Assembly: GCA_026991575.1 (NCBI GenBank)
Contig: JALXBF010000118.1
Location: 1-64,000 of the forward strand
Reading direction: 5' to 3'
DNA length: 64,000 bases
From: Planctomycetota bacterium
GTDB lineage: Bacteria > Planctomycetota > Planctomycetia > JALXBF01
The position numbers were made by a program, and so were the translations under genes. The notes beneath the pieces are model-generated. The model did not search any database. It had not been told where the DNA came from and saw only the letters and a list, made by a program, of their open reading frames with translations. Of this stretch, positions 13,647 to 58,647 are shown one piece after another (position 1 is the first letter of the stretch; each line of letters opens with the position of its first letter).

Positions 13647-14238
13647 CTCCCGTCTCCTTGCGCATCGCTCCACGCCACAGGCGGGCGACAGCCCCCATCG
13701 GACTGTCCGAACCTTCCCGCAGGCTCTATATCCTATACGACTCCCCTATGCCCTGCGCTGACTCCTGCCAGTCGAAAGTCCCCGAATCCCAGGCGTCGGC
13801 GGCAGCTTCCCAGACGGATCCTCTCCGGGCTCAGCTGACCGACGGGTCAGCGGGGTCGCGCCTGTACCCTGCCCGTTTTTCATCGGGCGGGCCCAGATTG
13901 GTGGATGCGCCGCGGGGCAACGCGCGGAAACTGTGGGCAAGCGTCCATCAAGGCGCTCACCAGCACAAGAGCCGGCGCCGCCCAATCCAGCAGCTGAGCC
14001 ATTCCTGGACAGCACACAGGCTGCTTGCGTTCGGTGCCTAGCCCTACAGCGGAGGCGGCTGTGGGCTCAGCGGGTTGGCCGACCGAAACGGGGACGGCGG
14101 GACGTTGGACTGCGTATGCTTGCAAGGAGGTGAAGTGAAACGCCGCAAGTGTGTGTTAGGTTTCCCGCGGCTACACGTCATTCTGGTGGACGTGCAGCGG
14201 ACGGATCGAGCAACCGCTTCGGGAGTCACCATCGCGCG

Positions 14239-14760
14239 ATGGAAAAGCTGACGGACGAGGTCCGTACGAAGCTGGAACGGTTGTACCGTGAGCGGGGACG
14301 GGAGCTCTGGGCCCGCCTGTACGCGGTATGCCTGGATGCGGACCTTGCGATGGACGCGTTGCACGAAGCGTTTGCCCGTTTTGCCCCTGCGGCTCAAAAC
14401 GGCGCACTCCGTAATCCGGCGGCCTGGTTGTACAAGACCGCGCGGAACTGGCTGCTGGACCAGCGGCGAGGCGAGCGACGCGTTCAGCCGGGTCGGCTAC
14501 GCTTGGCCGAGCCGAACGATCCGTCCAGCGAGGTGTTGCGCAGCGAGCTGCACGAGACGGTCCGCGATGCGCTGGCCAGCTTATCTGAAGCGGATCGTGA
14601 ATTACTTGTGCTCCGCTACGCGCTCGGCTGGCCAAGCAAGCGGATTGGCTCGCTACTTGGTATTTCTCCTGCAGCCGTCGACATGCGGTTGAGCCGGGCG
14701 CGCGACCGGCTGGCCGAACGACTGCGACAGCGAGGTGTGCACGATGGCACGGCACGATGA
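14239..14760 (+). CDS. ECF RNA polymerase sigma factor
   Basis: Region 2 (DALHEAF...AWLYKTARNWLLD) and region 4 (LASLSEADRELLVLRY...IGSLLGIS...RLSRAR). Confidence 0.92.
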   Translation: MEKLTDEVRTKLERLYRERGRELWARLYAVCLDADLAMDALHEAFARFAPAAQNGALRNPAAWLYKTARNWLLDQRRGERRVQPGRLRLAEPNDPSSEVLRSELHETVRDALASLSEADRELLVLRYALGWPSKRIGSLLGISPAAVDMRLSRARDRLAERLRQRGVHDGTAR

Positions 14761-15274
14761 GAAGACAAGCGGCGGCGATGTGGAGCAGCTTCTGCGGCAG
14801 TTCTTCGCACGCGAGCTGCCCGCGAGCCGTCCCCTGCCGCCAGTGCCCGCCCTGGCACCCGACCACTCGGGCAAGCGGCCGCGGCCCCGGCGCCGACCCG
14901 GACTGCGGACCGTGGCGGGTGTGGCGCTGCTCGCCGCTGCCAGCATTGCTGTCGCGGTCGTGTTGTGGCCCGTCCGGGGACAGCCCGGGCCCGATCGTTC
15001 GACCCCGGCACCGGATCAGGCGAACGCGGTCCCGGTCGGGCCGGCTGATGCCGAGCGGGCGCCGGTGACGGCGAGGGTCGTGCCGTACGTGGTGTTCGAC
15101 GAGCTGGAGGGGAGCCAGGTGGAGCAGGTGCAGCGGGCCGACGGATCGACAATGCTGATCCGTGCCCAGACAGGCTGGCGCCATTTGCTGGTGCGTGACC
15201 AGCGAGAGGGCGTGGCCACATGGTACGCCTTTCCGGTCATCGAGATTGCTGGATCGGTTACCAGCGCGGAATGA
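14744..15274 (+). CDS. Putative single-pass anti-sigma factor
   Basis: Overlaps the sigma stop; short cytoplasmic N-terminus, one TM (VAGVALLAAASIAVAVVLW), periplasmic tail. Confidence 0.65.
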   Translation: MARHDEKTSGGDVEQLLRQFFARELPASRPLPPVPALAPDHSGKRPRPRRRPGLRTVAGVALLAAASIAVAVVLWPVRGQPGPDRSTPAPDQANAVPVGPADAERAPVTARVVPYVVFDELEGSQVEQVQRADGSTMLIRAQTGWRHLLVRDQREGVATWYAFPVIEIAGSVTSAE

Positions 15275-15309
15275 CGACAAGCAAGAGAAACGAACAGCGG
15301 AGGATTGCC

Positions 15310-16623
15310 ATGAAACGGTGGTTGGGTGTTGTGCTAGTCGGTGCGTTGACCGTGCCCGCATGGGCACAGGAGCCGAAGGACCAGCCCGAGCGCAGTGAGG
15401 TTCAGGTCGAGGCGCCCGGCACTCGGGTTCGCAAGGATGCGAAGGGGAACGTCGAGGTCGAGGCTCCGGCGGCTCGGGTGCGGAAGGACGCGAAGGGTAA
15501 CGTCCGGGTCGAAGCGCCGGGCGTGGTCGTGGAGCGAGACGAGCGGGGCGTTCGGGTCCGCACGCCATTCGGCGTCGTGAACGTGCCGCGCGACGAGCAA
15601 CGCGACGGGCAGCGCCGGGAGCGAGGCGGTGAACAGGAGGAAGCTAGGTTTGTCGTCGTCGGCGAACGGCGTGCGTACCTTGGCGTCATGATTGGCCCCG
15701 TGCCCGAGGTGGTGGTGGCTCAGTTTCCTGACGTGTTCAAAGAGGGACGCGGGGCGTTGGTGACAAGCATCGCGGCAGACTCACCGGCTGCCAAGGCGGG
15801 GATCAAGCCGCTGGACATCATCGTGCAAGTGGGTGAGCAGAAGGTCCGCTCGCCGGAGCATCTCAGCGAGCTGATCCGTCAGCACAAGCCAGGTGAGAAG
15901 GTAAGCCTGTGGGTGCTCCGTCGGGGCAAGCTGGAACGCGTCGAAGCGGAGTTGGGCGAGCGGCTCGAGCCGATCCGCCCGTTCGGACACCGGTTCGGTC
16001 CTTCGGGACGACTGCGTCGCATGCCCGGCCGACCGGCGCCATTCCGTCCCGGACCGCCTCATCAGATGCCCCCGCTGCGGCCCTTCCGCGGCTTCGTCCA
16101 GCTGTCGATCCGGACGATCGACGACAACAAGGTCGCGGTACACGCCGAATGGAGCGCCGAAGGGCAGCGCCGTAGCCTGGAGGTAGAAGGTTCGATTGAA
16201 GAAGTGCGTGAGAAGATCGAGCAGGCGGATATCCCCGAGGACGTCAAGAAGATGATCCTCCGCCACCTCGATCGGCCCCGCGGACGCGGGTTCGGGTGGC
16301 GCTTCCGGATGGAGCCGTTCTTCCGTTTTGACGACGAGGACAGTTTCTTCTTCGGGCCCCGCTTCTGGCTCGACCGCGACGGCCGCCGACTGGACATCTG
16401 GATCCAGCCAGGCAGCCCTGACGCTGAGGCCATCGAAGAGTGGCTCGAGGATCTTCCCGACGACCTGCCCCCGGAACTGCGGGAGCGGATCGAGCGGGCG
16501 CTACGCCGGATGTTGAGGCTGTACGGCGGAGACGAAGAGCGGCACGAGCATCGCGAGCAGCACCATGAGCGGCACCGTCACCAACGGCAACGTCGGGAAC
16601 GTGACGAGAACCGCGTCCTCTGA
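15310..16623 (+). CDS. Exported PDZ-domain protein with no trypsin protease domain
   Basis: Signal peptide ending AWA-Q; repeats V(E/Q/R)VEAP..RVRKDAKGN; PDZ (AYLGV...GALVTSIAADSPAAKAGIKPLDII); His/Arg/Glu-rich tail. Confidence 0.85.
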   Translation: MKRWLGVVLVGALTVPAWAQEPKDQPERSEVQVEAPGTRVRKDAKGNVEVEAPAARVRKDAKGNVRVEAPGVVVERDERGVRVRTPFGVVNVPRDEQRDGQRRERGGEQEEARFVVVGERRAYLGVMIGPVPEVVVAQFPDVFKEGRGALVTSIAADSPAAKAGIKPLDIIVQVGEQKVRSPEHLSELIRQHKPGEKVSLWVLRRGKLERVEAELGERLEPIRPFGHRFGPSGRLRRMPGRPAPFRPGPPHQMPPLRPFRGFVQLSIRTIDDNKVAVHAEWSAEGQRRSLEVEGSIEEVREKIEQADIPEDVKKMILRHLDRPRGRGFGWRFRMEPFFRFDDEDSFFFGPRFWLDRDGRRLDIWIQPGSPDAEAIEEWLEDLPDDLPPELRERIERALRRMLRLYGGDEERHEHREQHHERHRHQRQRRERDENRVL

Positions 16624-17286: not shown

Positions 17287-17709
17287 CCGTGCAAGCAAGC
17301 TGGCAAGTCCATGTGTTCATTGCCCTCGGCAGGGTTTCGGGTGGGTGTCCTCCCGTGCTCCATCTCGCAGATGGATTCGCACCCCCCGCGCGGGCAAGGG
17401 CACAGGGCTACGGCGCCGACCCCACGGCGGTCTCTCGGCATGTCACCGCCGTGCACTGCCGCAGGGCGAAGCCGCCACCCCATCCGCTTGACGAACACCG
17501 CCTCCCGAGCCCCTGCTTCCCCAGCGGTGGGAGACCGCGGGCAATCGGTTACGCCGACCATTGCCCCCATGCCCCGTTGGCCTGCCAGGCGCTAGGGCCT
17601 CCCTGCGCTCCCGGTGACGCCGCGACCGCCTGCTGCAACCTCCATCGCCGCCTGCCCACGAACCATCGTGCACGAGGCCGCAGCACGTCGCCACGCCCCA
17701 ATCCCTCCC

Positions 17710-18045
17710 CACGAACTTATCCAGGGACGGCTCCTGGCCCAACCGCTCCAATAGCCGCGACAGGTTCCACTTCCGTGGCTCTGCGTCTTCCGACTCAGTG
17801 CCCGCCACTTTCCGCAGTGGCTCGTTCCGCCGCAACTCCTTCAGGCAGCGCTCGATGCTTTGGTGTCGCAATGCCGCAGTCAGGACAAGAATCCGCCACG
17901 CCACCTGCACAGGCACATCATTTCAGCCACGACCGCGACGTTTCGCCGACGATGCCACCGACCGCTCGTCGGGGATGCCTTCCAGAAACTTGCGGATCGT
18001 TTGCATCGTGAGACCGTCCTCCAGGTCCTTCGGGCAAACAGCCGA
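17710..18045 (-). pseudogene. N-terminal transposase remnant (DUF772/IS1182-like or IS5-like)
   Basis: Manual translation DLEDGLTMQTIRKFLEGIPD...RRGRG*NDVPVQVAW...RHQSIERCLKELRRNEPLRKVAG...WNLSRLL; internal TGA at 17923-17925; no DDE domain. Confidence 0.7.
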
Positions 18046-18335: not shown

Positions 18336-18367
18336 TTGACAGAGAAGAAGAAGAAGAAGAAGATAAT
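18336..18367 (+). promoter_or_regulatory. Sigma70-like promoter with a (GAA)6 repeat in the spacer
   Basis: TTGACA 18336-18341; 20-nt spacer of GA plus (GAA)6 at 18344-18361; GATAAT 18362-18367; about 60 nt upstream of ATG 18427. Confidence 0.65.
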
Positions 18368-18426
18368 GCATGCAGATCGGTCTGAGTCGGTTGTATCGAT
18401 GGTATGACTAACGGGGAGGACCTGTC

Positions 18427-18846
18427 ATGAGGCTGTGCATCCACATCCTCGCCTCAGTGTGCCTCGGGGCGCTCGCCGCGACTCTGTCCGACCTTGGCCT
18501 GGGACGCCTCCATCGTCCAGCTCGGGCGGAGCTCGAACGGGTGACCGGCAGCTCGTTCTACGAGACCGGGGCCTATCTGGTCATGTGTCCCGATCCGTTC
18601 AACTGCTTGGGCCAGGGCAACTGCGCGTCTCGATCCTGCCTGAGATGTCCGGTTGTCCTGAACATGCAAGTGGCCAGCGGCGGGTTCAACCGTATCATCG
18701 TGACTACCCAGCAATGTCCGCCGGGCGTGCAGCGGGGTGTCTGTGTCACTGGTCCCAATGGCTGCATGTGCGACGGTCCTACTTTCTCGAACGTGCCCTG
18801 CGGCTCGTACAACCAGATCGTGATGTTTGATGATCAGTCAGGCTAA
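18427..18846 (+). CDS. Exported Cys-rich mini-protein or RiPP-like precursor (locus A)
   Basis: RBS GGGGAGGA; hydrophobic N-terminus; ELERVTGS at residues 35-42; 10 Cys after that motif. Confidence 0.75.
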   Translation: MRLCIHILASVCLGALAATLSDLGLGRLHRPARAELERVTGSSFYETGAYLVMCPDPFNCLGQGNCASRSCLRCPVVLNMQVASGGFNRIIVTTQQCPPGVQRGVCVTGPNGCMCDGPTFSNVPCGSYNQIVMFDDQSG

Positions 18847-18899
18847 GGTCTGCAAGACGAACGGGGACCGCCTCTGGACTGGTGCGTGAGGTAAGGTGC

Positions 18900-20291
18900 A
18901 TGTCCGGAATAGCGCTACCTTTTGTTTTGTGTGCGTTGGCGTTGGTGCCGGCAGGGCAGTTTGTCTTGAGATCCGAGGGGAAGGAGTCGAACTGCGCGGT
19001 GGTGGCGTTAACCGTGTGCCTACGCCTGTGGGGACACGACGTCAGCTGTGCGGCCGTGGCGAAGGAACTGGGCTTGTCCGATGGGAGTCGCGGCAGTGCG
19101 GATGCGGTGTCGCTTGCAGACCTTGAGCGTGCGGCAAGGCGTTGGGAGCCAAACGTGGAAGCACGGAAGGCAGGCCTGGCCACGCTTGCACGCGTCCCAC
19201 TCCCGGCCGTCGCACATGGCGTAATCACCGCCGACGGTCAGCCAGAACGACTAACCGGCGGGCATTACGTCGTTCTGCTGCGGCTTGACGCAGAGCAGGC
19301 GGTCGTGGCAGATCCGCTTACGATGCAGGTGGCCACGGTGCCGAGGTCTAGATTTGCTGCCTTCTACGACGGGTATGTGCTGGCGAGGGAGCGAAGGGGG
19401 GCCCGCTGGGCTATCCTCTTCGTATGTTTCACCACACTGGCCGCCGTTCTGCTGAGGCTGGCAAGACGTCTCGGGATCAGGGAAACCATATCCATCGTGC
19501 TTGCGTCCGGCCTCGCCCTTGGTACGACTGCCGGCTGCAGCCGGGAGCCGACACCGTTCTCGCCAGCGGAGGAAGGGGAGAGCCCACTTGAAGCGCTCCC
19601 CGCACAGCTTGATCTGGGGACAGTGTCGATCGGTGAGACCGTGACCAGGAGTGTTCGCCTGCGGAACGTCAGCTCAAAGCGGCTGCGTCTGAAACTGGTC
19701 GATCCCGGCTGCGCATCGTGCACGGCAGAACTGGTCCAGACGGAGCTGTCACCGGGAGAAACGACGGAGCTGCGTGTCAGTGTGGCATCGGACCGCGCGC
19801 CGGCTGGCCCATTCTACCGGACGATCGGGGTGGCGACCCGGGAAGGTAAGGCAGTACTGACGATCGAAGTCTCTGCCCTTGTGGAAGGATTGAAAACGGA
19901 GCCGTACACCTTCCGCTGCGGCTCGAACGCGGAGACACCACCGCCTCTCAAGGGCAAACTTATCCTGGCCGAGCGACTTGCGTCAGACTCCGTCTCCCTG
20001 CCCGAGGTCGAACTGGAGGACCTGTTGGCCAAGCAGACGTCGACGTTCAAGCCCTGCATGGCCGTGGGTGGAGAAGCCACCTGGGGGCCGTGGCAGAAAG
20101 TGCGTCTGCCCATGCCTTGCTATGAGCGGGAGTTTACGGTCCCACTTGTCTGGGTCAAGGACGCTGCGTGTGTTCCCAGACAGGTCCTGGCCCACGTCGA
20201 ATGTACGGTACGCGGTCAGCGAATACGCCACCAGACACTACTGCGGATCGTTCCCGCTGTAACCGTGACGGCTCGCCCCGCGGACCGATGA
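18900..20291 (+). CDS. Exported C39-family cysteine peptidase fused through TM segments to a DUF1573 Ig-like domain
   Basis: Signal peptide; SNCAVVAL (Cys), GHYVVL (His), ADP (Asp, 16 residues after His); two hydrophobic segments; LDLGTV...RNVSSKRLRLKLVDPGCASC...LSPGET; no ABC domain. Confidence 0.8.
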   Translation: MSGIALPFVLCALALVPAGQFVLRSEGKESNCAVVALTVCLRLWGHDVSCAAVAKELGLSDGSRGSADAVSLADLERAARRWEPNVEARKAGLATLARVPLPAVAHGVITADGQPERLTGGHYVVLLRLDAEQAVVADPLTMQVATVPRSRFAAFYDGYVLARERRGARWAILFVCFTTLAAVLLRLARRLGIRETISIVLASGLALGTTAGCSREPTPFSPAEEGESPLEALPAQLDLGTVSIGETVTRSVRLRNVSSKRLRLKLVDPGCASCTAELVQTELSPGETTELRVSVASDRAPAGPFYRTIGVATREGKAVLTIEVSALVEGLKTEPYTFRCGSNAETPPPLKGKLILAERLASDSVSLPEVELEDLLAKQTSTFKPCMAVGGEATWGPWQKVRLPMPCYEREFTVPLVWVKDAACVPRQVLAHVECTVRGQRIRHQTLLRIVPAVTVTARPADR

Positions 20292-20317
20292 GCCGGCACG
20301 TCGGGGAGGTAGACGAG

Positions 20318-21436
20318 ATGAGTGGAAGCGAGGCTGTGGACAAGATCGACCGAAGGGCCGCTTGCCACATGCTATGGGTCACCGTGTGGACCCTCGGGAC
20401 GGGGTTGGCGATTGCGAGCCAGGCGCTGGCTGCCGAAACCGGGCCAAGACCTACCAACAAGCCAGCGAAGCTGTCGCTCGAACAACTGCGTGACTGTCTG
20501 TCGCGGTTCTACGCCCAACTGCACGCCTTGGACGTTGAGTACGAAGTCCTGGACAGCCCGGACTCAGAACCTCATCGGGTGCGATACGCCTTCAAGGGTG
20601 ACAAACGCTACACGGCGCGCACCGGTCCTGGCCAGGAGGAGCCGGAATTTGTTGGCGGCATCGTCAACGGCACGTACTGGTATCTGCAGCCGGAGCAGCT
20701 TACGGCCGGCATCGTGCCTGTCGAGCAGGCAGGCGACGCACTTCACTACGACGCATTTGTGGATGCCCTGCACATTGCCTTGGCGGATGAGGCGAAGTCG
20801 GAGGCGTACCTTCGTCCCCGGTTTCTGCCGCTGGCGCTGGACGCACCAACAGCGCAATGGAAGGTCCGCCCGAAGCTGGAAGAAGTCGATGGACATCTGT
20901 GCCATGTGCTGGAGGGCAAGGCTCTCACGCTGTGGGTCGACACGGAGCTCGGTTGTGCTCCGCGTTATGCCGAGTTGTACACGGAAGTGGATGGCACCAG
21001 GCGGCTTGTGGGATCGTACCACTACGCCGATCTGGCCGACGCTGGTAGCGGGGTCTATTTGCCACGGCTGGTGGAGATCACTGCGTACTCGGTTAGCGGC
21101 AAGGAGAGCAGGCCGAGCAGACGGCAGACCCTCAAAGTGTTACGTATCGCCGTCGGGGACGATGTGCATGACGATCTTTTCGAACCGGCGTTTCCCCGGG
21201 GCACGACGGTGCTCGATGCGACGAAAGGGGAACGGTACATCGCCGGGCCGGCCGACGCGGGCGTGACACGATTGACTGAACAGGCGCGCGACGCGCTGAC
21301 GCGTCCGGGCGCACGAGGGCCTGTCGGCCCCCGGCCGACTACGTGGATCGTTCTCGGGGCCGGTGTAGCGGTCGTGGCCATCGGGTTGCTGGCGCTGTGG
21401 ATCCGAAGCCGAGCCGGCGCTAGGGGCGGCTCGTAA
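20318..21436 (+). CDS. Exported protein with C-terminal TM anchor, possibly LolA-like fold (locus A partner)
   Basis: RBS GGGGAGG; signal ending ALA; EEVDGHLCHVLE...LWVDTELG...DDLFEPAFPRGTTVLD pattern; C-terminal TM plus basic residues. Confidence 0.7.
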   Translation: MSGSEAVDKIDRRAACHMLWVTVWTLGTGLAIASQALAAETGPRPTNKPAKLSLEQLRDCLSRFYAQLHALDVEYEVLDSPDSEPHRVRYAFKGDKRYTARTGPGQEEPEFVGGIVNGTYWYLQPEQLTAGIVPVEQAGDALHYDAFVDALHIALADEAKSEAYLRPRFLPLALDAPTAQWKVRPKLEEVDGHLCHVLEGKALTLWVDTELGCAPRYAELYTEVDGTRRLVGSYHYADLADAGSGVYLPRLVEITAYSVSGKESRPSRRQTLKVLRIAVGDDVHDDLFEPAFPRGTTVLDATKGERYIAGPADAGVTRLTEQARDALTRPGARGPVGPRPTTWIVLGAGVAVVAIGLLALWIRSRAGARGGS

Positions 21437-21484
21437 CGCGCATCCGGGGTGAGAACGGGCTGGCATCGCGGGGGATTGGTCAGC

Positions 21485-23554
21485 ATGTACGGGGAGTGGC
21501 GTCTTGCAAGAACGGTGATCTTTACGGCGGCCGTCGCCCTGCCGTTCTACTGGTGGTGGTTTGGACCTGTTGTCTCGTCGGACCAGTGGGTGGTCCGCGG
21601 CTTACTGGCGGGGGCGGTGTACGGCGCCGTGGCCTGGTACGCGTGGGTCCGTCGGTCGAGTTCCGGCTCTGGTCCGGATAACGATATCGTCGAGGGAGAA
21701 CGCGACGCCGATGCTCAGGCAAGTACGGCCATGCGGCTGGGTAGGCGGTTCGCCATTGGTGTTGCCGTATTGCACGTGCTGCTCGTTGTCTGGATTGCCT
21801 GGGCACACAGCCCCACAGCGCACGAGACGCGCTATCTCGTGGCCGGTCTGAGCCACTGGGAGACGGGTCATTTCGATGTAGCCCGCGTGAACCCACCACT
21901 GGTACGGCTGTGGCAGGCTCTTTTTCCCCTTCTGGCGGGCGCTAAGACGGACTGGTCTGTGTATCCAGCCGATGAGCCGACCGCTGGCCTTGGTGGCTAT
22001 CGGCCCGACCTGGTGATGACAGCACGCTGGATCAGGCTCAATGGTGAAGCAAGCCACTGGTATGTCTTTCTTGGCCGCTGCGCGAACATACCGTTGTCAC
22101 TGCTGGGGGCGTGGGTATGTTGGCGGTGGGCGTTGGAGCTCTTCGGGCTGCGCGCCGCATGCTGCGCGGTGACGCTGTGGTGCCTGTGCCCGTTCATGCT
22201 CACTTACGCTGCACTGACGAGCCCGGATCTTGGCGGCGCTGCACTCGGAATCGCAGCAGCCTACGTGTGCTGGCGCTGGGCACGCGTGCCCAACTGGTCC
22301 CGTGCCCTGGCGTTCGGCGGTGCGCTCGGTGCCGCGATCGCTGCACGCACGACGAACATTGCGCTGTTGCCCGCCTGCGTTGCCTGTGTCTTCACGTCGA
22401 GCCGACCGCGGCGGCGTCGGGCTCTGGAGCTTGCGGCTGCCATGGGCGTCGCACTGCTGGTGCTCAACGCAACCTACGGGTTCGAAGGCACGTTTCGGCC
22501 GCTGGGCTCGTACCAGTTCATCAGTCGCTTCTTCGCCGGGCATAACTTTTCCAGACCGGTGGTGGGCAATCGCTTCCGAGACCTGATCGGTTGGCTGCCG
22601 GTGCCCCTGCCAGAGGATTTCGTCAAGGGTGTTGATCTGCAGAAGGCCGACTTCGAGGGCGTATCGCACTGGCCATGGTCCTACATGGCTGGGGTCTGGC
22701 GCGAACAGGCGTGGTGGTACTTTTACCTGTATGCCCTTGCTGTCAAGCTGCCGGCGGGGTCGCTGATCCTCCTGGCGGCTGCCGTGATTGGATTTCTTGT
22801 CCGAAAGACGGCACGGTCGGATGTGATAGCAGAGGTACTGCTCGCCTGCGCCATTGCGGCCTTTTTCCTGTTGGTTAGCAGCCAAGCTGGGTTCAGCAGG
22901 GAATCACGTTACATCGTGGGGGTGATCCCGTTTCTCTATGTGTGGGGTAGCCGCCTCGCGATCAATCCATTGCGTCGATCAAAGGAGCCGGTGCTGTGGC
23001 CAGTTCTGGTGACGGTCACTGCCGTCAGCGTGCTCACCGTCTACCCGCACTGCTATTCCTATTTCAATGCCTTCGTAGGAGGTCCATTCGGTGGTCCCCG
23101 CTGTCTTTGGGGCGGTAATATCGACTCGGGCCAAGATGCGGTGTATTTGTCACGCTGGGCCAAAGCCCACCCGGAGGCTCGGCCACTGTTCGTTGTTGTC
23201 CAAGGGCAGACGGTCTATCCGATCCATTTAAGCGGCCTGCGTGACTGGCAACCGATCCCGGCCGACCCGCGCAGCCCGGAGCCACACCCGAAATACCCTC
23301 CCCGCCCGGGCTGGTACGCGATCAGCGTCAGCGAACTGTACTATCCATCGGATGCGTACGCATACCTGCGGCAGCTCAAGCCCGTCGCCTATGCCGGCTA
23401 CTCGATCTACATCTTTCACCTGACCGAGCGCGACGTTGAAGCGCTAAGGCCGCTGTTTGCTATGATCGAGTCGCAGTCCGAACCAGATGAGCCTCCCGGC
23501 TCGGACAGTGCGTCCGACACCGGCGATTCGCCGTCCGACACGTCGCGGGATTGA
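21485..23554 (+). CDS. Polytopic GT-C glycosyltransferase (ArnT/PMT-like, GT39/GT83) (locus A)
   Basis: HSPTAHETRYLVAGLSHW...VNPPLVRL, LPVPLPEDFVKGVDLQ, WWYFYLYALAVKLP, RYIV, SYFNAFVGGP...NIDSGQD; many TM helices. Confidence 0.85.
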   Translation: MYGEWRLARTVIFTAAVALPFYWWWFGPVVSSDQWVVRGLLAGAVYGAVAWYAWVRRSSSGSGPDNDIVEGERDADAQASTAMRLGRRFAIGVAVLHVLLVVWIAWAHSPTAHETRYLVAGLSHWETGHFDVARVNPPLVRLWQALFPLLAGAKTDWSVYPADEPTAGLGGYRPDLVMTARWIRLNGEASHWYVFLGRCANIPLSLLGAWVCWRWALELFGLRAACCAVTLWCLCPFMLTYAALTSPDLGGAALGIAAAYVCWRWARVPNWSRALAFGGALGAAIAARTTNIALLPACVACVFTSSRPRRRRALELAAAMGVALLVLNATYGFEGTFRPLGSYQFISRFFAGHNFSRPVVGNRFRDLIGWLPVPLPEDFVKGVDLQKADFEGVSHWPWSYMAGVWREQAWWYFYLYALAVKLPAGSLILLAAAVIGFLVRKTARSDVIAEVLLACAIAAFFLLVSSQAGFSRESRYIVGVIPFLYVWGSRLAINPLRRSKEPVLWPVLVTVTAVSVLTVYPHCYSYFNAFVGGPFGGPRCLWGGNIDSGQDAVYLSRWAKAHPEARPLFVVVQGQTVYPIHLSGLRDWQPIPADPRSPEPHPKYPPRPGWYAISVSELYYPSDAYAYLRQLKPVAYAGYSIYIFHLTERDVEALRPLFAMIESQSEPDEPPGSDSASDTGDSPSDTSRD

Positions 23555-24836: not shown

Positions 24837-25859
24837 TTATCCCTGCTGCTCGTTGCACGCTTGTCTTCGCTGGACCAAGCGGTATCTCAGCCACCACAGC
24901 ACTGCAGACAGCGCCGTAGCCAGGATGCCAAGCCACAACCATCTGCCCCGGTCGGCAGGCGGCTGGTGAATCCTTGCGTGGTCGATCCCGAACGCAGCGA
25001 GCGTGAACTCTTCGTCGCTGGGTGGTTGCTCCGGAATTCGGAACTCAAACTCACTACGCCACCAGGCATAGCCGTCCAATTCTTCGTTCTTCACCCTCCA
25101 GCGCATGTGGACTAACTTGGGGACGGGAGCCGGACGGAACGTTTCGTCATATTCGATAGTGAGCATGGCAGGTTCACCGGTGTCACCTTCCCGCCACTCC
25201 TCGCCTTTAACGATCGCCCACATCCGCTCGGGATCGACCCAGACGGAGCCGACGCGGCGCCTGAGCGGGTGGTTGATCTTGTACTCGGCCTTGAGCAGAG
25301 AGGCATCCTCTAATCCAGTCCATTCGATCGATTGAATTTCCACCGAGTCGGACCACCACGAGAAGGCGACGGACCAATCGGGACCGGGCTTGATGAAGTA
25401 CGCCCGCGCCGTGTAGTGGGAAAGTATCCAGCACGATTCTCGCACCTCGCTCACGCCGGCAGCGTACTCGGATACATACCATCGTCCGTCAGTCGCCTTG
25501 CCCAGAAGGGCCGAGCCCCGTGGCCCGTACAGCAAAGCCTTCCACGTTGGACCGGATAGACCACGGTCCCAACGTCGCTCGATCATGTAGCCATGTCGCC
25601 CGTTTTGTTTGATCTGAATCGTTGCGTCCACCCACAGTTTGTCTGTTCCTTCCGCGCCCAATCGCTCTCGCACCGTACCACAGAGGCGCGTGCCGACGCG
25701 CAGGTATTCTTCCATCGCGCTGCGGATCGTCCGTGCCAATACCTCCGGGGACTTAATTGCTTGCGCGTCTTGCGCGGGTAGGCTGTCAACAACGAGGACA
25801 GCGATGGTGGTGGCCAAGCCGATACACAATGCCGACTTTGGTGTGCTGGCAGACGCCAC
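24837..25859 (-). CDS. Exported protein with C-terminal TM anchor (partner class, locus C)
   Basis: GTG with GGGGGAG RBS; signal peptide; tail PSDEEFTLAAFGI followed by TM and basic residues, resembling 56039-57163. Confidence 0.75.
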   Translation of the reverse strand: MASASTPKSALCIGLATTIAVLVVDSLPAQDAQAIKSPEVLARTIRSAMEEYLRVGTRLCGTVRERLGAEGTDKLWVDATIQIKQNGRHGYMIERRWDRGLSGPTWKALLYGPRGSALLGKATDGRWYVSEYAAGVSEVRESCWILSHYTARAYFIKPGPDWSVAFSWWSDSVEIQSIEWTGLEDASLLKAEYKINHPLRRRVGSVWVDPERMWAIVKGEEWREGDTGEPAMLTIEYDETFRPAPVPKLVHMRWRVKNEELDGYAWWRSEFEFRIPEQPPSDEEFTLAAFGIDHARIHQPPADRGRWLWLGILATALSAVLWWLRYRLVQRRQACNEQQG

Positions 25860-53494: not shown

Positions 53495-54025
53495 CTACCT
53501 GCGCTTCGCCTCCGCGCCGGCGGCCGCCGCATCAGCGGGCTGCTCGCTGTCATTGCCGCCCTGGCCCCCACTCCGAGCTTCCGATGTCACGTCATCGGAC
53601 GTTGGTCCCTCGGCGGCAGTCACCACGATCGTCCCCTGAACCACGTACAGCTTCCGCCCGTCGGTCACATAGACCTCCACAGGGTACGAAAAGCTCTCCC
53701 CAGCACGCGGCGTATGAACACGAAAGCGGATCGCCGTACTTTGTTGCGGAGCGAGCCGGACCGGCACGCTGCTCACCCTCCGCATTGCTCACCCGCCGTT
53801 CGTCCCGACCACCACAACCTCCTCCTCGGCCACGTTCCGCACGGTCAGCTCCACCACCATCGGTTCCTCCGGAACCGGCGCACGCACTTGTACCTCAGAC
53901 GGGTCAAGCACAGCGGGCAGCAAGCTGCTCGGCAGCCAGGCTGCCACACCGGCAACGAACACGCCAGCCAAAACCATCGCCGCCCAACCGGGTATCGACT
54001 GGATCAGAAAGTTAACCCTCCGCAT
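53495..54025 (-). CDS. Membrane-anchored DUF1573-like Ig-fold protein, candidate selenoprotein (Sec79 encoded by TGA 53789-53791)
   Basis: ORFs 53789-54046 and 53495-53785 are in the same frame; the TGA aligns without gaps to the Cys of GCA in the locus A DUF1573 domain; SECIS-like hairpin follows; RBS GGAGG before ATG 54025. Confidence 0.7.
53745..53788 (-). promoter_or_regulatory. Candidate bacterial SECIS element
   Basis: After TGA: lower stem TGCGG/CCGCA and upper stem AGCG-T-GCCG-GTC-CGGC-T-CGCT; apical GGTC 26 nt from the TGA. Confidence 0.6.
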
Positions 54026-55892
54026 CGTAACGCACCTCCAATACACGCCTCGAACCCTTCTGCACCGAATCGCCCGGAGCAGACTCTTGCGTCTGACGGG
54101 GCTTCGCTGTCCCCCACAGGATCCGGGCCAGGCGGGCCGATTCTTCAGGCGTAACCTCGTAGACTAGCACGGCTGCTCCCAACGTCGCAATGGGACGCAT
54201 GTGGCGCGTGTACTCGATCACACGAGACGTCGGCACGTTGGGATAAAGTGGCATGTATCGGTGGGGATCGATGATGTAGATCCCCGCCGGCGGTCCCTCG
54301 CCCCGGAACTCATCCGGCGGCAGCGGCCGCGGCACATCGATCGGCCAGTGGCTTCCTAGCCCGCAGGGATCCTGAAACAGTGCGTACACTGTGCGGCCTG
54401 CATCGCGGTAGCGCTGCACCAACTCTCGTATGAAAAAGTAGTCTTCCCCACCAGAAACCGACGGGCCGGCGAGCTGCAGATAGCCGGACTTGCTGCCGCC
54501 CACCAACTCGTTCAGATGTCCGTGAAAGTGCGGCGCTACACTGGCCACGGACCAGATCTGCCAGCTGAGCAGCCCGGCCAGCGCCAACGGGCGCCACAGC
54601 CCGAGGCGCCAGCCGGCGGCCAGCCCGCTCGTCCACACGATGAGGTACGGCAGCACCGGTGTCGTATACCGCAAGTGAACAGTGAGCGTCTTGTGGTACG
54701 AAAGCGTAGCCAGGACCAGCAAGACGGGGCCAAGTTCCAGCAACGTGGCACGTAGGGTGCCACCGCGCGGGCATAGTAACGCCGCGATCGTTCTCCACGC
54801 AAAGCACAGCCAGAACGCAACCGGCAACTTCGCCATCAGTCCGTACAGGTAGAAATACCATACACCTCCGTTGTGACGTCTACCTGCCACCCACGTGTCC
54901 CGAGGCACCCTGGTATCATGCAGTTGGAGATCCAGCCCAAGCACATAAGCATCGGGCAGCGGCACCGGGAGCCTGTTTACGACACCGCCCGTCACCGTTG
55001 CAGCCAGCGTTTGCAACCGGCGCAGCGAATCGCTACGAAACTGGTACGACCCCAGCGTTTGCAGGCGAGCGGTCCCCGCGTAACCGCAATACACGACCGT
55101 GCAGGCAACAGCCGCGGCAAAGACCAGCAGCACTGTACGCTCCAGTGCCCGTTGACGCTGGCGGCGCACCACGGCGATCCCTACCTCAACCAGCTCAACA
55201 ACCAGGTAAAACACTGCCAGCAACAGCACGGTGAACTTGGTCAACAGCCCCAGACCAACGGTGAGCCCGAACGCAGCCGCTCGCCCCGTACCAGGCTGTT
55301 CTCGGTAGCGGAAGTACGCCCAGCCGGCTGCCGCCGCCATCGCCGCCGTCAGACCGTCCGGGTTCAGGCACCCGGACCAATGCAGCAGTTCGGGATTCAG
55401 CACGTAGAACAAGACAGCTAGCAGGCCCGCTGCAGGCCCATGCGCTTTCCTGCTCCAAGACCACACGGCAATCGGCCCGATCCCGCAGGCAAGGGCAAGC
55501 GCGACGCGCGCCCACCTGAGCCAGCTCAGCGACTCGGGCAGGTTAGCCGAAAACGTAGCAATGGCAAACGGGAAGACGGTGTACGCATCCGGTCGGTCGA
55601 CGTAGGTGGTCCAGCTTTCCCAGAGGTTCTTTCCCTCCGGCACGAGCCAGACCGAACCCAGCCCGGCCACGATCCGTGACAGCGGTGGGTTAACCGGGTA
55701 AATGTCAAACCGGCTCAACTGGTAAATCGCGTAGGCCGAACACAGGTGCGCCGGCTCATTTACGTTCGGCGCGTGGACGGTTGCTGACCAGAGCACCGCA
55801 GCAAGCCACAGGGCCACCAATGTGCCGACGGTCACCCGCTCAAGAACGGACGGCTGTGCTACAGTTCCTCGTGCGCCTGCGTCAGGGCTCAT
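54012..55892 (-). CDS. Polytopic GT-C glycosyltransferase (ArnT/PMT-like) (locus B)
   Basis: RBS GAGGAGGG; HAPNVNEPAHL...VNPPLSR, LLTKFT, LPVPLPDAYVLGLDLQ, WYFYLYGLMAKLP, NELVGG; paralog of 21485-23554. Confidence 0.85.
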   Translation of the reverse strand: MSPDAGARGTVAQPSVLERVTVGTLVALWLAAVLWSATVHAPNVNEPAHLCSAYAIYQLSRFDIYPVNPPLSRIVAGLGSVWLVPEGKNLWESWTTYVDRPDAYTVFPFAIATFSANLPESLSWLRWARVALALACGIGPIAVWSWSRKAHGPAAGLLAVLFYVLNPELLHWSGCLNPDGLTAAMAAAAGWAYFRYREQPGTGRAAAFGLTVGLGLLTKFTVLLLAVFYLVVELVEVGIAVVRRQRQRALERTVLLVFAAAVACTVVYCGYAGTARLQTLGSYQFRSDSLRRLQTLAATVTGGVVNRLPVPLPDAYVLGLDLQLHDTRVPRDTWVAGRRHNGGVWYFYLYGLMAKLPVAFWLCFAWRTIAALLCPRGGTLRATLLELGPVLLVLATLSYHKTLTVHLRYTTPVLPYLIVWTSGLAAGWRLGLWRPLALAGLLSWQIWSVASVAPHFHGHLNELVGGSKSGYLQLAGPSVSGGEDYFFIRELVQRYRDAGRTVYALFQDPCGLGSHWPIDVPRPLPPDEFRGEGPPAGIYIIDPHRYMPLYPNVPTSRVIEYTRHMRPIATLGAAVLVYEVTPEESARLARILWGTAKPRQTQESAPGDSVQKGSRRVLEVRYDAEG

Positions 55893-56038
55893 GTTGCCCC
55901 TCCTCGCGTGCAGGCTCGTCCGACTGGCTGGCGCGGCTACCACAGGTGATTTGCCGGCCGTTTGGTCATGCCCACCTCAGACCCGTGGCCTGGGCCGCGA
56001 TCGCCGCTTTGTCCATCGCGTGTCCTGAGCCCGACGGT

Positions 56039-57163
56039 TCAGGACGTCTTGAGGGACCGTAGCCAACGGCCCAGTCCGATACCAGCCAGCAACAGCGCGA
56101 TCGCGGCCAACGCCAGCTTGATCGGACGAAGGCTCCCAGGCTCCGGTGGCCCCGTGACAACGTCGTCCGGCAATCCAAAGTGCCGCAGCGAAAGTGCGTC
56201 TGCACTCAGCTCGGTGCCAAGCACCTCGTACTCTACCTCCTCCTTCGATACGTAGTAGTGCCTTGCGTCGGAGCTCTCCAGCAGCATCTCAAAGGACACC
56301 GACTTCGCCAGCGGGATACGCGCGACCTCCACGTACGAGACCGCTCGCTCAATGTTCGACACGCCGCCATCGACAACCTCTCCGCGGTACGTTTCTTGCA
56401 AAGGCAAGTACGGCGGTGTGGTCTGCAGCACGAAGCGTCCAGACTTGTAAGGAAGCAGATCTAGTCTTTCTGGCTCTGGAAGTGCCGACAGATCCAGTTT
56501 CCATTCAACAATCACCCCCTCATCCTTGGCCTCCACCCGATCAAAACAAATATGGCCTCCCTTCGCCTGGCGCAGCCACATTCGAACGCCCCGAGGCACG
56601 GGCGTGCAAAACGGTCTCTGGCTGCCGTGACACCCCAAGACGTGTTGCGTCAGGTAGTCGACGAGACTCGGCGGATCATCCGGATCGTACACGTTGCGGA
56701 GCACATTCGTGATGATCCAGCCCCCGCCGCCGCTTCCGCTGAGTAGGAACGCCTTCCCGTTCCGCACGACCCCAGCCCTCCTCCTCGTGGCTGCGTTGAC
56801 TTCCCCGTCCCGGACCGGTACAACCTTCGTCTCCTGCTCCTCCCATCGTACTTCCGGCCACTTTCCCACGAATCGTTCGATCACCGTCCATCGCTCGTGC
56901 CGGACGACCCTCAGCGGTTTTTCCTCAGTATGAGCTGCGGCACTGTGGCTAGGTGCCGTTCGCACCGAGATGATCCGCTCGCTCTGGAAGCGCCGCTCGC
57001 CAGATAGCGCGAGCCTTTCGAGCTCCCGGCACCAGTCTCTCCAGGCTGCCAGGATAGCGTCCGGCGAAACAGAAGCCTGTCCGCTGTTTGGTGCAGGTGG
57101 TCCAGTCGCATGACACAGGAGTACCAGACCGCAGCATACTCCGGTCACTGCAGTGACAGGCAT
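56039..57163 (-). CDS. Exported protein with C-terminal TM anchor (partner class, locus B)
   Basis: RBS GGAGG; hydrophobic N-terminus; tail DALSLRHFGLP plus TM and basic residues. Confidence 0.75.
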   Translation of the reverse strand: MPVTAVTGVCCGLVLLCHATGPPAPNSGQASVSPDAILAAWRDWCRELERLALSGERRFQSERIISVRTAPSHSAAAHTEEKPLRVVRHERWTVIERFVGKWPEVRWEEQETKVVPVRDGEVNAATRRRAGVVRNGKAFLLSGSGGGGWIITNVLRNVYDPDDPPSLVDYLTQHVLGCHGSQRPFCTPVPRGVRMWLRQAKGGHICFDRVEAKDEGVIVEWKLDLSALPEPERLDLLPYKSGRFVLQTTPPYLPLQETYRGEVVDGGVSNIERAVSYVEVARIPLAKSVSFEMLLESSDARHYYVSKEEVEYEVLGTELSADALSLRHFGLPDDVVTGPPEPGSLRPIKLALAAIALLLAGIGLGRWLRSLKTS

Positions 57164-57416
57164 TTCATCACCTCCACCCTAACTGCGCGCTCGACCCGCA
57201 TCATCCCTGCGAAGCGCCCCAAGCCTCCGCTGCCCACACAGCCGAACTGTGGTCCATGTCCCGTATAGCGTACCTCGCTTCGGCGGCGCGGACGTGGCTC
57301 CAACGGGGGCAACGCGCCGTCTGCCGCGCGTCGACGGCGTCACCTCGGCGGTGGCGTTGTCGTTAGCCCCGTGGCAACAGCGTGCGTCAGCTCGGTTTCG
57401 AAAGACGACAAGGTAC

Positions 57417-57713
57417 CTAGGATCCAGGGACTGTGGCACCCTGAGGGAGTTCGCAGACACATTCGTCCCGGCTTCCAATGTCACATACACAGTCGGTGCA
57501 TTTCTTGTCCTCGGTCCGGCAGCCTCCTCTACAAGCGCGGACAGCAAGTGTGCAGTCGCGATCGCAGACTGCATTACCCTCGCAAACCGGATCGCGTGGA
57601 TTGGGGTTCTGGCCATACAGAGGGCGCTCCCACGGCAAGAAGGATCCGATCGCGATCCCGATGGAAACGCACGCCAACGCCTCGACGACCATCGAAACGC
57701 TCTTGCGCAGCAT
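57417..57713 (-). CDS. Exported Cys-rich mini-protein or precursor (locus B)
   Basis: RBS GGAGG before ATG 57713; hydrophobic N-terminus; core C-x5-C-x3-C-x6-C-x3-C-x6-C-x2-C-x-C-x7-C-x-C. Confidence 0.75.
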   Translation of the reverse strand: MLRKSVSMVVEALACVSIGIAIGSFLPWERPLYGQNPNPRDPVCEGNAVCDRDCTLAVRACRGGCRTEDKKCTDCVCDIGSRDECVCELPQGATVPGS

Positions 57714-57788
57714 AGCCAATCCTCCGACACTTTGCCACATTGCGCTGGATCCTTAGAATGGCTGCCCAGAAGTCTGCGTAAAGCGACA

Positions 57789-58647
57789 CTATTTTCCTGT
57801 TGGGAAGCGGAACGGGCAGCGGGGTGGGGCTCGTCCGCGTCCCGGTTCGGGGCTCGAAAAATGCCATACGCGGCGAACTCGCCCGCCGGGCCCAACCAGG
57901 AACGCACTCGGCGATTGGCCCGGGCACAGGGCAAGCTCCTCATTCTGCACGGTCACACGGTCTCGGCCTACGTAGAGTAGCCGGACCGGGTACCCTTCGC
58001 GCTCTGCCCGATCGCCCAACCGGCGAGCCCACGCCACACATCTTGGACACCAGTCGCGCACTAACACGTAGAGTGCTGGCCCATCTGGTCGGTCGTCGAC
58101 CAGCCGTACCGGGAGACTCTTCCCAGACCAGCTATCGGGATCAACGTGAACAACAGGTGCCTCCAAATGTTTCCACACGCCTTGCCCCAGTGCCAGCAGC
58201 TGCGCGGGAGGTGGTTGCAGCGCCCACACGGCCAGAACCATTCCCAACAGCAGCGCTGCCGTAGGCGGAAACGCTTGACGGATACGGCGTGCCAATGTAC
58301 CAACTAGCGCGGCAAGCACCAACGCATCGATGGTGGCAATGGCTGGCGGCGGAACACGCAGCCGGCCAAAGCACCCGCAAGAAGGGTACCCCTGGTAGGT
58401 CAACCACAGGGCTACGAGGAAAAGAAGTCCGTAGACGGCGAGGACCAGAGCATGCACTGCGCGCGCCTGGCTTCGGTACAGGGCAGCTGCGCCGACAGCT
58501 AGTTCCACAAACGGCCATACGCCCTGGGCCGCGCGGAGGGACCACCACTCAAAGTATACCCCCCCCAACTCCACCGACGACCTTTGTTAGGCCGGCCACA
58601 ACCAGAAGGAAACCCGCAACCTTGGTCACGATAGACGACATTGGCAT
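57789..58647 (-). pseudogene. MauE/DoxX membrane protein fused to a thioredoxin-like CxxC domain, frameshifted in a G8 tract
   Basis: N-terminus MSSIVTKVAGFLLVVAGLTK in one frame; VELAVG...YPSCGCFG...WCPRC in the next; removing one G at 58559-58566 restores a single ORF. Confidence 0.75.

Follow-up and report, generated by a model that had tools for sequence, protein, structure and literature searches.

Recurrent planctomycete loci pair a putatively exported C39 peptidase with Cys-rich proteins carrying a double-glycine-type motif

Gene organization of the locus

We studied a stretch of 64,000 nucleotides from a Planctomycetota bacterium (GenBank assembly GCA_026991575.1, contig JALXBF010000118.1, positions 1 to 64,000; hereafter the window), in which four co-oriented, closely packed open reading frames (ORFs) span positions 18427-23554 of the forward strand. 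They encode a small Cys-rich pre-pro-protein (the precursor), a C39 peptidase fused to a DUF1573 domain, a protein with a predicted LolA/LolB fold and a C-terminal membrane helix (the anchor), and a candidate GT-C-type glycosyltransferase. An earlier note on this DNA had listed the four genes, the third as a TM-anchored exported partner, and had proposed an extracytoplasmic pathway in which the small protein is exported, cleaved, disulfide-folded and possibly glycosylated. The four ORFs are all present, their Pfam matches lie above the respective cut-offs, and the wider interpretation was partly supported (see below). The features of the locus, with the kind of evidence in brackets, are the following:

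18427-18846, + strand: Cys-rich pre-pro-protein of 139 aa (ORF and ribosome-binding site)
18900-18968, + strand: N-terminal signal-like hydrophobic segment of the C39-DUF1573 protein (hydropathy)
18972-19394, + strand: peptidase C39 domain (Pfam PF03412)
19401-19538, + strand: predicted membrane hairpin of two helices (residues 168-191 and 195-211) joined by a short Arg-rich turn; it ends in Gly212-Cys213 (AlphaFold2 model, AF2)
19587-19898, + strand: DUF1573 Ig-like domain with CxxC (Pfam PF07610)
19905-20255, + strand: second beta-rich C-terminal domain, of no family (AF2 model)
20318-21436, + strand: protein of 372 aa with a predicted LolA/LolB fold, a signal-like N-terminus and a C-terminal transmembrane (TM) anchor (AF2 and Foldseek)
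21449-23554, + strand: candidate GT-C-type membrane glycosyltransferase (PMT_2) of 701 aa (Pfam PF13231)

The intergenic gaps measure 53 nt between the first and second genes and 12 nt between the third and fourth; the second and third genes are 26 nt apart or overlapping, an alternative ATG of the anchor gene at 20288 lying 4 nt into the end of the C39 gene, stop codon included. Homologue searches covered the precursor, C39-DUF1573 and anchor genes, and each had a homologue of 52-60% identity on a contig of 14,361 bp, probably one and the same contig. Because of this linkage, and because the core recurs in distant genomes, the comparison of sequences indicates that the gene arrangement is not due to chance.

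The precursor and its double-glycine-type motif

The precursor gene is preceded by GGAGGA, 8 nt upstream of the start at 18427. Its product has 12 Cys, two in the hydrophobic N-terminus (residues 3-21) and ten in the predicted core. Read backward from Ser42, the residues ahead of the core are S-1 G-2 T-3 V-4 R-5 E-6 L-7 E-8 (thus E35, L36, V39 and G41 in precursor numbering). Double-glycine leaders end in Gly-Gly, Gly-Ala or Gly-Ser (PMC6363468), and the window precursor has Gly at -2, a residue of the Gly/Ala/Ser set at -1, hydrophobic residues at -4 and -7 and Glu at -8. This putative motif is an addition to what the earlier note had described. The predicted cut after Gly41-Ser42, following nucleotide 18552, would leave a core of 97 aa with 10 Cys (18553-18843). 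Since the motif stands about 20-25 residues behind the hydrophobic stretch, the N-terminus resembles an export signal followed by a propeptide. A word-based search gave two homologues, one 88% identical on a 602-bp contig and one 59% identical; in the three-way alignment all 10 core Cys and E35, L36, V39 and G41 are invariant and the N-terminal 30 residues are variable.

The precursor matched no Pfam, NCBIfam or PADLOC family, an Atlas search gave no usable match for it, and searches for related loci in genome contigs (query A2) and metagenome contigs (query A1) gave no confirmed relative. A narrow motif filter (EL..V.G plus a Cys-rich core) returned the window ORF and one spurious ORF. Modelled as a complex, C39-domain residues 16-168 and residues 24-80 of the precursor scored 0.01, which is evidence neither way. 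We considered whether these precursors are lipoproteins, as a Cys often follows the double glycine by 1-3 residues, and rejected this reading because the site lies 16-27 residues from the hydrophobic segment; for the window precursor the first core Cys is moreover at +12.

The C39-DUF1573 peptidase and its predicted topology

The C39-DUF1573 ORF (18882/18900-20291) probably starts at the ATG at 18900, giving 463 aa: the gene model in the database has this length, and the 52% homologue starts at the corresponding place; the alternative GTG at 18882 would add MREVRC. The product matched Pfam Peptidase_C39 (E 3.3e-13, 50.1 bits, cut-off 22) and DUF1573 (E 1.4e-9, 38.3 bits, cut-off 26.1), the latter with its paired-Cys motif. 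In the 463-aa numbering the catalytic residues are Cys32 (18993-18995), His122 (19263-19265) and Asp138 (19311-19313).

Searches with the single C39-DUF1573 or anchor sequence over 401 genomes of the phylum gave weak partial matches only, and a family profile was needed. An exhaustive HMMER search of 1.84 billion representatives yielded 488 proteins at E <= 1e-3 and 26 at E <= 1e-10; the family alignment (A3) has 21 members, namely 19 of 150 listed proteins (those matched in a single stretch covering both domains), the 52% homologue and the window protein. Compared with the PDB, the family profile found PCAT1 (4ry2, E 4.4e-15) and also ComA and LahT150, with the Cys, the His and the Asp 16 residues after the His aligned. 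The catalytic Cys and His are invariant in 21/21 members; the Asp, present in the window protein, is Glu or Asn in some relatives. All 21 share the order hydrophobic N-terminus, C39, helix, Arg/Lys-rich loop, second helix ending in Gly-Cys, linker, DUF1573 and beta domain. The DUF1573 part of the family carries a P-S-C-x-C motif; the window protein has CxxC (Cys271 and Cys274, 19710-19721), most relatives CxC. The AF2 model has an overall predicted local distance difference test score (pLDDT) of 81.7. Within the C39 domain most 10-residue blocks score 84-94, with dips to 57 (residues 61-70) and 49 (residues 111-120); DUF1573 is modelled as a beta-sandwich, and the second beta-rich domain, conserved in the closest homologue, scores mostly above 90. 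Foldseek returned only generic tandem Ig-like matches for the whole model.

A hydrophobic segment precedes the catalytic Cys in 17 of the 21 members (hydropathy threshold 1.8), several of these N-termini being classical signals that end in A-x-A; the other four have weaker segments or long N-terminal extensions. The two central helices form a hairpin in the AF2 model, which would place C39 and DUF1573 on one side of the membrane. The loop between them, in the 11 members that a crude parser resolved, contains 1-9 Lys plus Arg (2-5 in 9/11) and no Asp or Glu in 10/11, so that by the positive-inside rule the loop would be cytoplasmic and both domains probably periplasmic. Stand-alone DUF1573 genes of the window's genome, and the one in genome G273 (see below), encode proteins of secreted type. 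Signal-type N-termini, charged loop and hairpin together bear out, inferentially, the export of the C39 domain that had been proposed. The Gly212-Cys213 pair at the end of the second helix (19533-19538) is invariant in 21/21 members. By the lipobox rule it makes this helix resemble a lipoprotein signal lying within the polypeptide, and lipidation, or cleavage of the fusion by signal peptidase II, is conceivable.

The LolA/LolB-fold anchor

The anchor has a hydrophobic N-terminus and a C-terminal TM helix (residues 340-368, 21335-21421). It was modelled from an alignment of five sequences, the window protein, the 60% homologue from the 14,361-bp contig and three distant relatives. The AF2 model (pLDDT 69, predicted TM-score 0.62) shows a beta-rich body between an N-terminal and a C-terminal helix. 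Foldseek against the PDB matched it to LolA3 of P. gingivalis (9tp6, E 2e-9) and NE2245 (3buu, E 4e-9), with a TM-score (target) of 0.60, and to dozens more LolA, LolB and RseB structures (E 2e-9 to 1e-5, probability 1.0). The model thus has the open beta-barrel with internal helix of the LolA/LolB fold; at the sequence level the protein matched no Pfam or NCBIfam family, LolA/LolB included. An Atlas result pointing to the TP_0789-like/LolA families (0.82) is taken as a lead. The earlier description of this protein as a TM-anchored partner stands as regards the C-terminal helix; it had foreseen neither the fold nor the place of the protein in the core of the module.

Recurrence in other planctomycete genomes

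The family profile was run over the 401 genomes. Loci were called exported-type when the C39 domain was not in a frame of ABC (ATP-binding cassette) transporter length, which gave 16 places. We dropped L054, L057, L063 and L064 (contigs of 4.5 kb or less; the C39 domain of L057 is also internal), L055 and L058 (no hydrophobic N-terminus before C39), and L065, the same place as L052. Ten exported-type loci in six genomes were kept: one each in G288, G223, G273 and G075, two in G098 and four in G228. G273 and G098 are apparently complete, each assembled as a single contig. The controls were 20 loci with C39 in a frame of about 720-790 aa or of more than 900 aa (ABC-type or long). A uniform filter took as candidate precursor any ORF of 80-300 aa with an N-terminal 15-residue hydropathy of at least 1.7, a G[GAS] 9-45 residues further on, and then at least six Cys.

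Candidate precursors were found at nine of the ten exported-type loci (149 kb) and at none of the 20 controls (291 kb). At all nine, one candidate stands upstream of the C39 gene on the same strand, and the tenth locus (L061) has such an ORF by eye, with Cys at -1. Four extra filter matches occurred in the exported set: two are probably spurious, one lies inside a GT-C gene and the fourth may be real. Nearly every locus also has an ORF of 330-480 aa between or beside the precursor and C39 genes; its product starts with a hydrophobic segment and mostly has a C-terminal TM helix.

The leader tally comprised 17 precursors with about 12 unrelated core families. Position -2 is Gly in 16/17, the lone miss being a mis-choice by the script in L056, where the motif by eye ends in ...STVGG. 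Position -1 is G in 9, A in 4, S in 2, C in 1 and R in 1. Val, Ile or Leu occupies -4 in 13/17, Leu, Met or Val -7 in 11/17, Glu or Asp -8 in 9/17, and Leu, Ile or Val -12 in 10/17. The motif stands 16-27 residues behind the hydrophobic segment in 15/17; the doubtful sites of L056 and L042 are at 37 and 34. Conserved motif and synteny together favour, by inference, the Cys-rich protein as the likely C39 substrate, as the earlier note had it.

Some loci depart from the usual layout. At L059 (G075:C29, 8087-14325) the protein with a double-glycine leader has 285 aa and 50 Cys, a neighbouring 454-aa ORF has 72 Cys, and TPR proteins replace the usual anchor before C39. At L042 (G223:C127, 9588-10667) the C39 gene is followed by a MauE-like membrane protein (PF07291, E 3.5e-7) and then by a protein of 894 aa that contains five CarboxypepD_reg repeats; MauE has a link to the formation of disulfides in methylamine dehydrogenase. 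Pilin-like genes of DUF1559 type with prepilin N-termini often flank the modules (C16:39283-40347; C64:1-894; C33, L089 7156-9421; L040 11009-12004; L056 10865-13939). Such genes are very abundant in planctomycetes, and their flanking position may be due to chance.

Further copies in the same genome

The window's genome (97.8% complete) has five C39 genes by Pfam and a sixth by the family profile. None has a frame fit for an ABC fusion (five are of 210-599 aa, the sixth an ORF of 640 aa), and no ABC transporter was found between 8 and 34 kb of the window, which upholds the proposed absence of an ABC exporter from the locus. The other C39 loci, in gene order, are:

C74: two pairs, each of a 119-aa Cys-rich ...LQGA/AC protein and an anchor, followed by two C39 genes and then a GT-C gene
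C16: DUF1573, DUF1559, a 141-aa Cys-rich ...LRGG/DTF protein, an anchor and C39
C92: anchor, C39 (with a DUF1573-like part) and GT-C; a 14-Cys ORF without any leader beside transposase-like ORFs
C64: C39 and two anchors; no precursor found

Double-glycine precursors are thus carried by C74, in two copies, and by C16. A genome-wide precursor filter gave 35 candidates, mostly spurious frames of high GC content, four of which lie within 6 kb of one of the five Pfam C39 genes. The C16 precursor has two paralogues, on C139 and C33, with 41-46% identity, each followed by its own anchor (that of C139 is 23% identical to the C16 anchor, E 8e-12) and neither with a C39 gene on its contig region. The trio shares a core that starts with Asp-Thr (DTFIG). 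It is preceded by Gly-Gly only in the copy adjoining C39; the two copies without a nearby C39 have A-L-A or A-R-A (A-x-A) before the core.

DUF1573 and the GT-C gene

The GT-C ORF matched PMT_2 with a marginal score (E 7.6e-7, 29.9 bits, cut-off 26.1) and has at least nine hydrophobic segments; it had no sequence match in the PDB and no NCBIfam family. Its first-loop acidic motif is H-E, and D-E in the paralogue on C92. The genome has about 21 GT-C paralogues. One lies in the window, in a second locus on the negative strand (54012-57943) that has no C39: the GT-C paralogue (54012-55943, PMT_2 E 4.4e-8), a 374-aa ORF of no family (56039-57163) and a 107-aa ORF whose product has 11 Cys and begins with a hydrophobic segment (57417-57740).

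A DUF1573 profile matched six of the ten exported-type loci in other genomes (five fused, one adjacent) and none of the 20 controls; to these can be added a sub-threshold Pfam match in G273. A profile of the GT-C paralogues found G273 only among the ten, and again no control, so that GT-C is present at 1/10 exported-type loci elsewhere and at 3/5 in the window's genome. G273 has five separate co-directional genes, for precursor, anchor, C39, a DUF1573-like lipoprotein and GT-C; as the five functions are separate there, the fusion in the window looks like a genuine functional link. Within the window's genome, 6 of 10 DUF1573 genes have a GT-C gene on the same strand within 5 kb, although only about 5% of the genome is that close to one, and five of these six have no C39. 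The pairs are on contigs C6, C33, C39, C104 and C151 and in the window, with a Cys-rich secreted ORF beside the pair at C6 and C104. Only 3 of 16 strictly filtered Cys-rich secreted ORFs are within 6 kb of a GT-C gene. This evidence from gene neighbourhoods ties GT-C to DUF1573 rather than to the mini-protein, and GT-C is more likely an accessory, a lineage-specific add-on, than a core component.

Glycosylation of the mini-protein, as had been suggested, is therefore unsupported: GT-C is not a regular partner of C39 loci and pairs with DUF1573 genes with or without C39. The label of a product like a ribosomally synthesized and post-translationally modified peptide (RiPP) is likewise unsupported. 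The predicted product is a disulfide-rich protein of 97 residues, large for a RiPP core, the leader and core layout is a prediction, and the locus has no demonstrated modification enzyme. As to DUF1573 itself, a table in one review gives it as a selenoprotein family with the motif UGC (PMC9312934). U-G-C aligns with the C-G-C of many DUF1573 relatives, for which reason the Cys pair may be redox-active, and by this analogy it would suit a Cys-rich substrate.

Promoter region and neighbouring genes

The remaining features around the locus are:

18336-18367, + strand: possible promoter, TTGACA (18336-18341), a (GAA)7 run and GATAAT (18362-18367), with a spacer of 20 nt (read from the sequence)
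17443-17916, - strand: transposase remnant at the upstream edge of the locus (Pfam DUF772, E 8.6e-6)
24837-25859, - strand: convergent ORF of 340 aa with a signal-like N-terminus and a C-terminal TM helix; membership in the module uncertain (ORF)

A consensus promoter and terminator scan was uninformative and did not report the TTGACA/GATAAT pair, because its spacer exceeds 18 nt; the promoter function of this region is putative. The TTGACA is perfect, the spacer is mostly (GAA)7, and one repeat unit fewer would make it 17 nt. We speculate that the precursor-gene promoter could vary in strength by slippage of the repeat. GC content dips to 0.60-0.64 over 17.5-19.5 kb versus 0.66-0.67 on the flank, which, with the transposase remnant, suggests that the locus may have been acquired or rearranged.

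Three genes lie 2-4 kb upstream of the locus, for an ECF (extracytoplasmic function) sigma factor (14149-14760), for a possible anti-sigma protein (14735-15274, overlapping the end of the sigma-factor gene) and for a PDZ-domain protein (15220-16623). Downstream are the convergent ORF, a PQQ-repeat protein and an SNF2 helicase. The convergent ORF has four paralogues in the genome with 50-55% identity (e.g., C150:228-3762 and C75:18940-20160); on C150 three of them stand in tandem, directly after an 88-aa ORF with 10 Cys. It was considered as a paralogue of the anchor and rejected, since hhalign against the LolA-fold anchor family gave a probability of 3%.

Proposed mechanism and alternatives

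We propose that the locus is one copy of a recurrent planctomycete envelope module with a three-gene core. The hydrophobic N-terminus would take the precursor across the cytoplasmic membrane by general export. The anchored C39 peptidase, its catalytic domain facing the periplasm according to the predicted topology, would then cut after Gly41-Ser42, at the end of a propeptide of double-glycine type located some 20 residues past the hydrophobic N-terminus, and would free the 97-residue core to fold with up to five disulfides. The LolA/LolB-fold protein, its C-terminal helix in the membrane, most likely binds the precursor or the product, as chaperone, receptor or immunity-like partner. The DUF1573 domain with its CxxC, fused through the hairpin, probably acts on the cysteines of the substrate, a guess from its selenocysteine-containing relatives, and GT-C more likely works with DUF1573 than directly on the mini-protein. 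The mature protein could be an antimicrobial, an envelope component or a signal. On the comparative evidence we give cleavage of the precursor's double-glycine propeptide by a C39 peptidase outside the cytoplasm a probability of about 0.6.

Several observations weigh against this proposal. The window precursor has Pro instead of Leu at -12 and its leader is not the extreme N-terminus, its closest homologue has Arg at -1, L042 has no convincing double-glycine site, and the Cys-rich ORF on C92 has no leader. C39 peptidases usually have a Gln, the proposed oxyanion residue, six positions ahead of the catalytic Cys; the window protein has Glu there, and the family does not conserve the Gln; in LahT150 this Gln is 4.3 Å from the oxyanion and its role has been doubted (PMC6363468). 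With the ATG at 18900 as start, no positive charge precedes the hydrophobic stretch of the peptidase, and the topology is deduced from hydropathy, charge and a predicted model. The anchor fold was predicted for one member, the anchors being mostly not detectably similar in sequence, and the ten loci come from six genomes, four from a single one, so that they are kin and not independent.

The periplasmic C39 peptidase might instead cut another protein, such as the LolA-fold partner, its own DUF1573 part or an unlinked substrate, with an ordinary signal peptidase maturing the Cys-rich protein and the double-glycine-like motif being no cleavage site. Anchor and precursor are equally constant neighbours, the window precursor has A-L-A just past its hydrophobic stretch, precursor/anchor pairs without a nearby C39 exist, and for FapD, a periplasmic C39 peptidase of Pseudomonas, the substrate is undefined and the Fap proteins lack canonical C39 sites (PMC5557850). 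We nevertheless think this unlikely, because positions -2, -4, -7 and -8 fit the C39 recognition pattern in otherwise unrelated precursors and the C16 trio has Gly-Gly only in the copy adjoining C39; moreover, no motif of this type was noticed in the anchors, although they were not searched for one. Less probable still is a classical cytoplasmic leader peptidase, with C39 cutting the leader before an unlinked transporter exports the product. The cytoplasm is the textbook location of C39, and the charges flanking the first helix after C39 are about equal on both sides in the window protein; yet the hairpin would then place DUF1573 and the lipoprotein-like Gly-Cys in the cytoplasm too, 17/21 relatives have signal-type N-termini, the substrate has a hydrophobic export-type start and 10 conserved Cys, and the genome has no peptidase-containing ABC transporter (PCAT).

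Extracytoplasmic processing is compatible with a bacteriocin-like toxin/immunity set, in which a secreted antimicrobial would become active once its leader is cut off outside the cell, with the LolA-fold protein as cognate immunity or binding partner. Consistent with it are the several divergent loci per genome (five here, four in G228), cores unrelated in sequence between loci, precursor and anchor that duplicate and diverge as a pair (the tandem pairs of C74 and the trio of C16, C139 and C33), and leaders typical of bacteriocins (PMC6363468). No similarity to known bacteriocin or immunity families was found, PADLOC gave no match with five proteins, and the locus has no outer-membrane export component. 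In planctomycetes the product could as plausibly be a Cys-rich envelope protein, and we regard the toxin/immunity interpretation as a tentative one. The complete pathway first suggested, from export through cleavage and disulfide folding to a RiPP-like product glycosylated by GT-C, is doubtful. GT-C is co-oriented and only 12 nt past the anchor gene, it follows C39 genes in two other loci of the genome and in G273, and triads of Cys-rich ORF, DUF1573 and GT-C occur at C6 and C104. These associations are outweighed by the nine of ten exported-C39 loci without GT-C, by the small share of Cys-rich secreted ORFs near one, by its tracking of DUF1573 genes that have no C39, and by the marginal PMT_2 score. 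A broader version is speculative and rather unlikely: a wholly extracytoplasmic, leader-guided pathway for the maturation of ribosomal mini-proteins, widespread in planctomycetes, in which C39 would cut the leader in the periplasm, the CxC or CxxC of a fused or adjacent DUF1573 domain would form or shuffle disulfides, a cognate LolA-fold anchor would receive each product and GT-C would add a sugar in this lineage. Cleavage by the lipoprotein signal peptidase at the internal Gly-Cys may even turn the fusion into two proteins, a membrane protease and a DUF1573 lipoprotein. If true, such a pathway would be a new class of extracytoplasmically matured products.

Under the proposed cleavage of the precursor, the planctomycete loci pair a putatively periplasm-facing C39 peptidase with a specific neighbouring candidate substrate and a near-canonical site (Gly41-Ser42 here); because they offer both, the targets of periplasmic C39 enzymes become testable with one enzyme and one peptide. 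The three-gene module of Cys-rich double-glycine protein, LolA-fold anchor and exported C39, often with DUF1573, is recurrent and unnamed, and its several divergent copies per genome suggest that a family of secreted, disulfide-rich proteins exists in this phylum, where the biology of the envelope is little understood. Fusion to C39 and pairing with GT-C also give the uncharacterised DUF1573 domain a testable context.

Comparison with known systems

The textbook setting of C39 peptidases and double-glycine leaders is the cytoplasm, where the two work as a pair in connection with ABC exporters. The PCATs and the related ABC transporter maturation and secretion (AMS) proteins, represented by PCAT1, ComA and LahT150, share with the window system the C39 family, the Cys, His and Asp residues, and a site with Glu at -8, Leu at -7, a hydrophobic residue at -4, Gly at -2 and a small residue at -1. 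Their C39 domain is cytoplasmic and fused to an ABC transporter, and their leader is the N-terminus itself, whereas in the window the motif lies behind an export-type segment, the peptidase has a predicted signal of its own and lacks an ABC partner, there is no conserved Gln and Pro stands at -12.

In the making of glycocins, soluble glycosyltransferases attach the sugar in the cytoplasm and PCATs carry out the export. Neither a soluble glycosyltransferase nor a PCAT was found in the locus or in its surroundings of 8-34 kb, and the window product, of about 97 residues and with glycosylation that is putative at most, differs from glycocins in these respects too. GT-C enzymes of the PMT/ArnT class transfer lipid-linked sugars at the outward side of the membrane. 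The window protein is like them in being polytopic and in its PMT_2 match; it differs in the marginal score, the lack of a sequence match to a solved structure and H-E in place of D-E. The anchor shares its predicted fold with the LolA/LolB/RseB superfamily, from which it differs in having no sequence family match, in its tether by a C-terminal TM helix and in its gene standing beside a protease and a putative substrate, not with LolCDE. As for the precursor, glycocins are likewise disulfide-containing ribosomal peptides whose leader is removed at a double-glycine site (PMC12457901).

The closest precedent for the peptidase is FapD of the Pseudomonas Fap functional-amyloid system, the one periplasmic C39 member that has been studied. 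According to Rouse et al., FapD has a Sec signal and works with an OmpA signal, and FapC secretion depends on the active-site Cys of FapD; the FapD target "remains unclear", and the Fap proteins are without canonical C39 sites (PMC5557850). FapD is thus an experimentally supported periplasmic C39 peptidase with a Sec signal, so that a periplasmic C39 is not unprecedented, and the statement that no characterised system has this logic does not hold. FapD and the window peptidase share an export signal and an extracytoplasmic C39 domain (both only predicted in the window), no ABC fusion, and a gene beside those of Sec-exported presumed substrates. The hydrophobic N-terminus of the window protein, present also in most of its relatives (17/21), may correspond to the N-terminal signal of FapD. 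FapD is soluble, whereas the window peptidase is predicted to be membrane-anchored and is fused to DUF1573. The Fap operon encodes amyloid subunits and the outer-membrane channel FapF, the window locus a Cys-rich mini-protein, a LolA-fold protein and GT-C; the context of a Fap operon is therefore not present, and the four products have no amyloid-subunit or beta-barrel-channel features, although no direct search with Fap proteins was made. The cleavage site of FapD is undefined, as opposed to the near-canonical candidate site of the window precursor. Literature searches outside the subscription journals turned up no account of a module that combines a Cys-rich double-glycine protein, a LolA-fold partner and an exported C39. 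The novel elements are the near-canonical double-glycine propeptide behind an export signal, together with the Cys-rich cargo, the LolA-fold partner, the membrane anchoring of the peptidase and its fusion to DUF1573, all as predicted from sequence and models.

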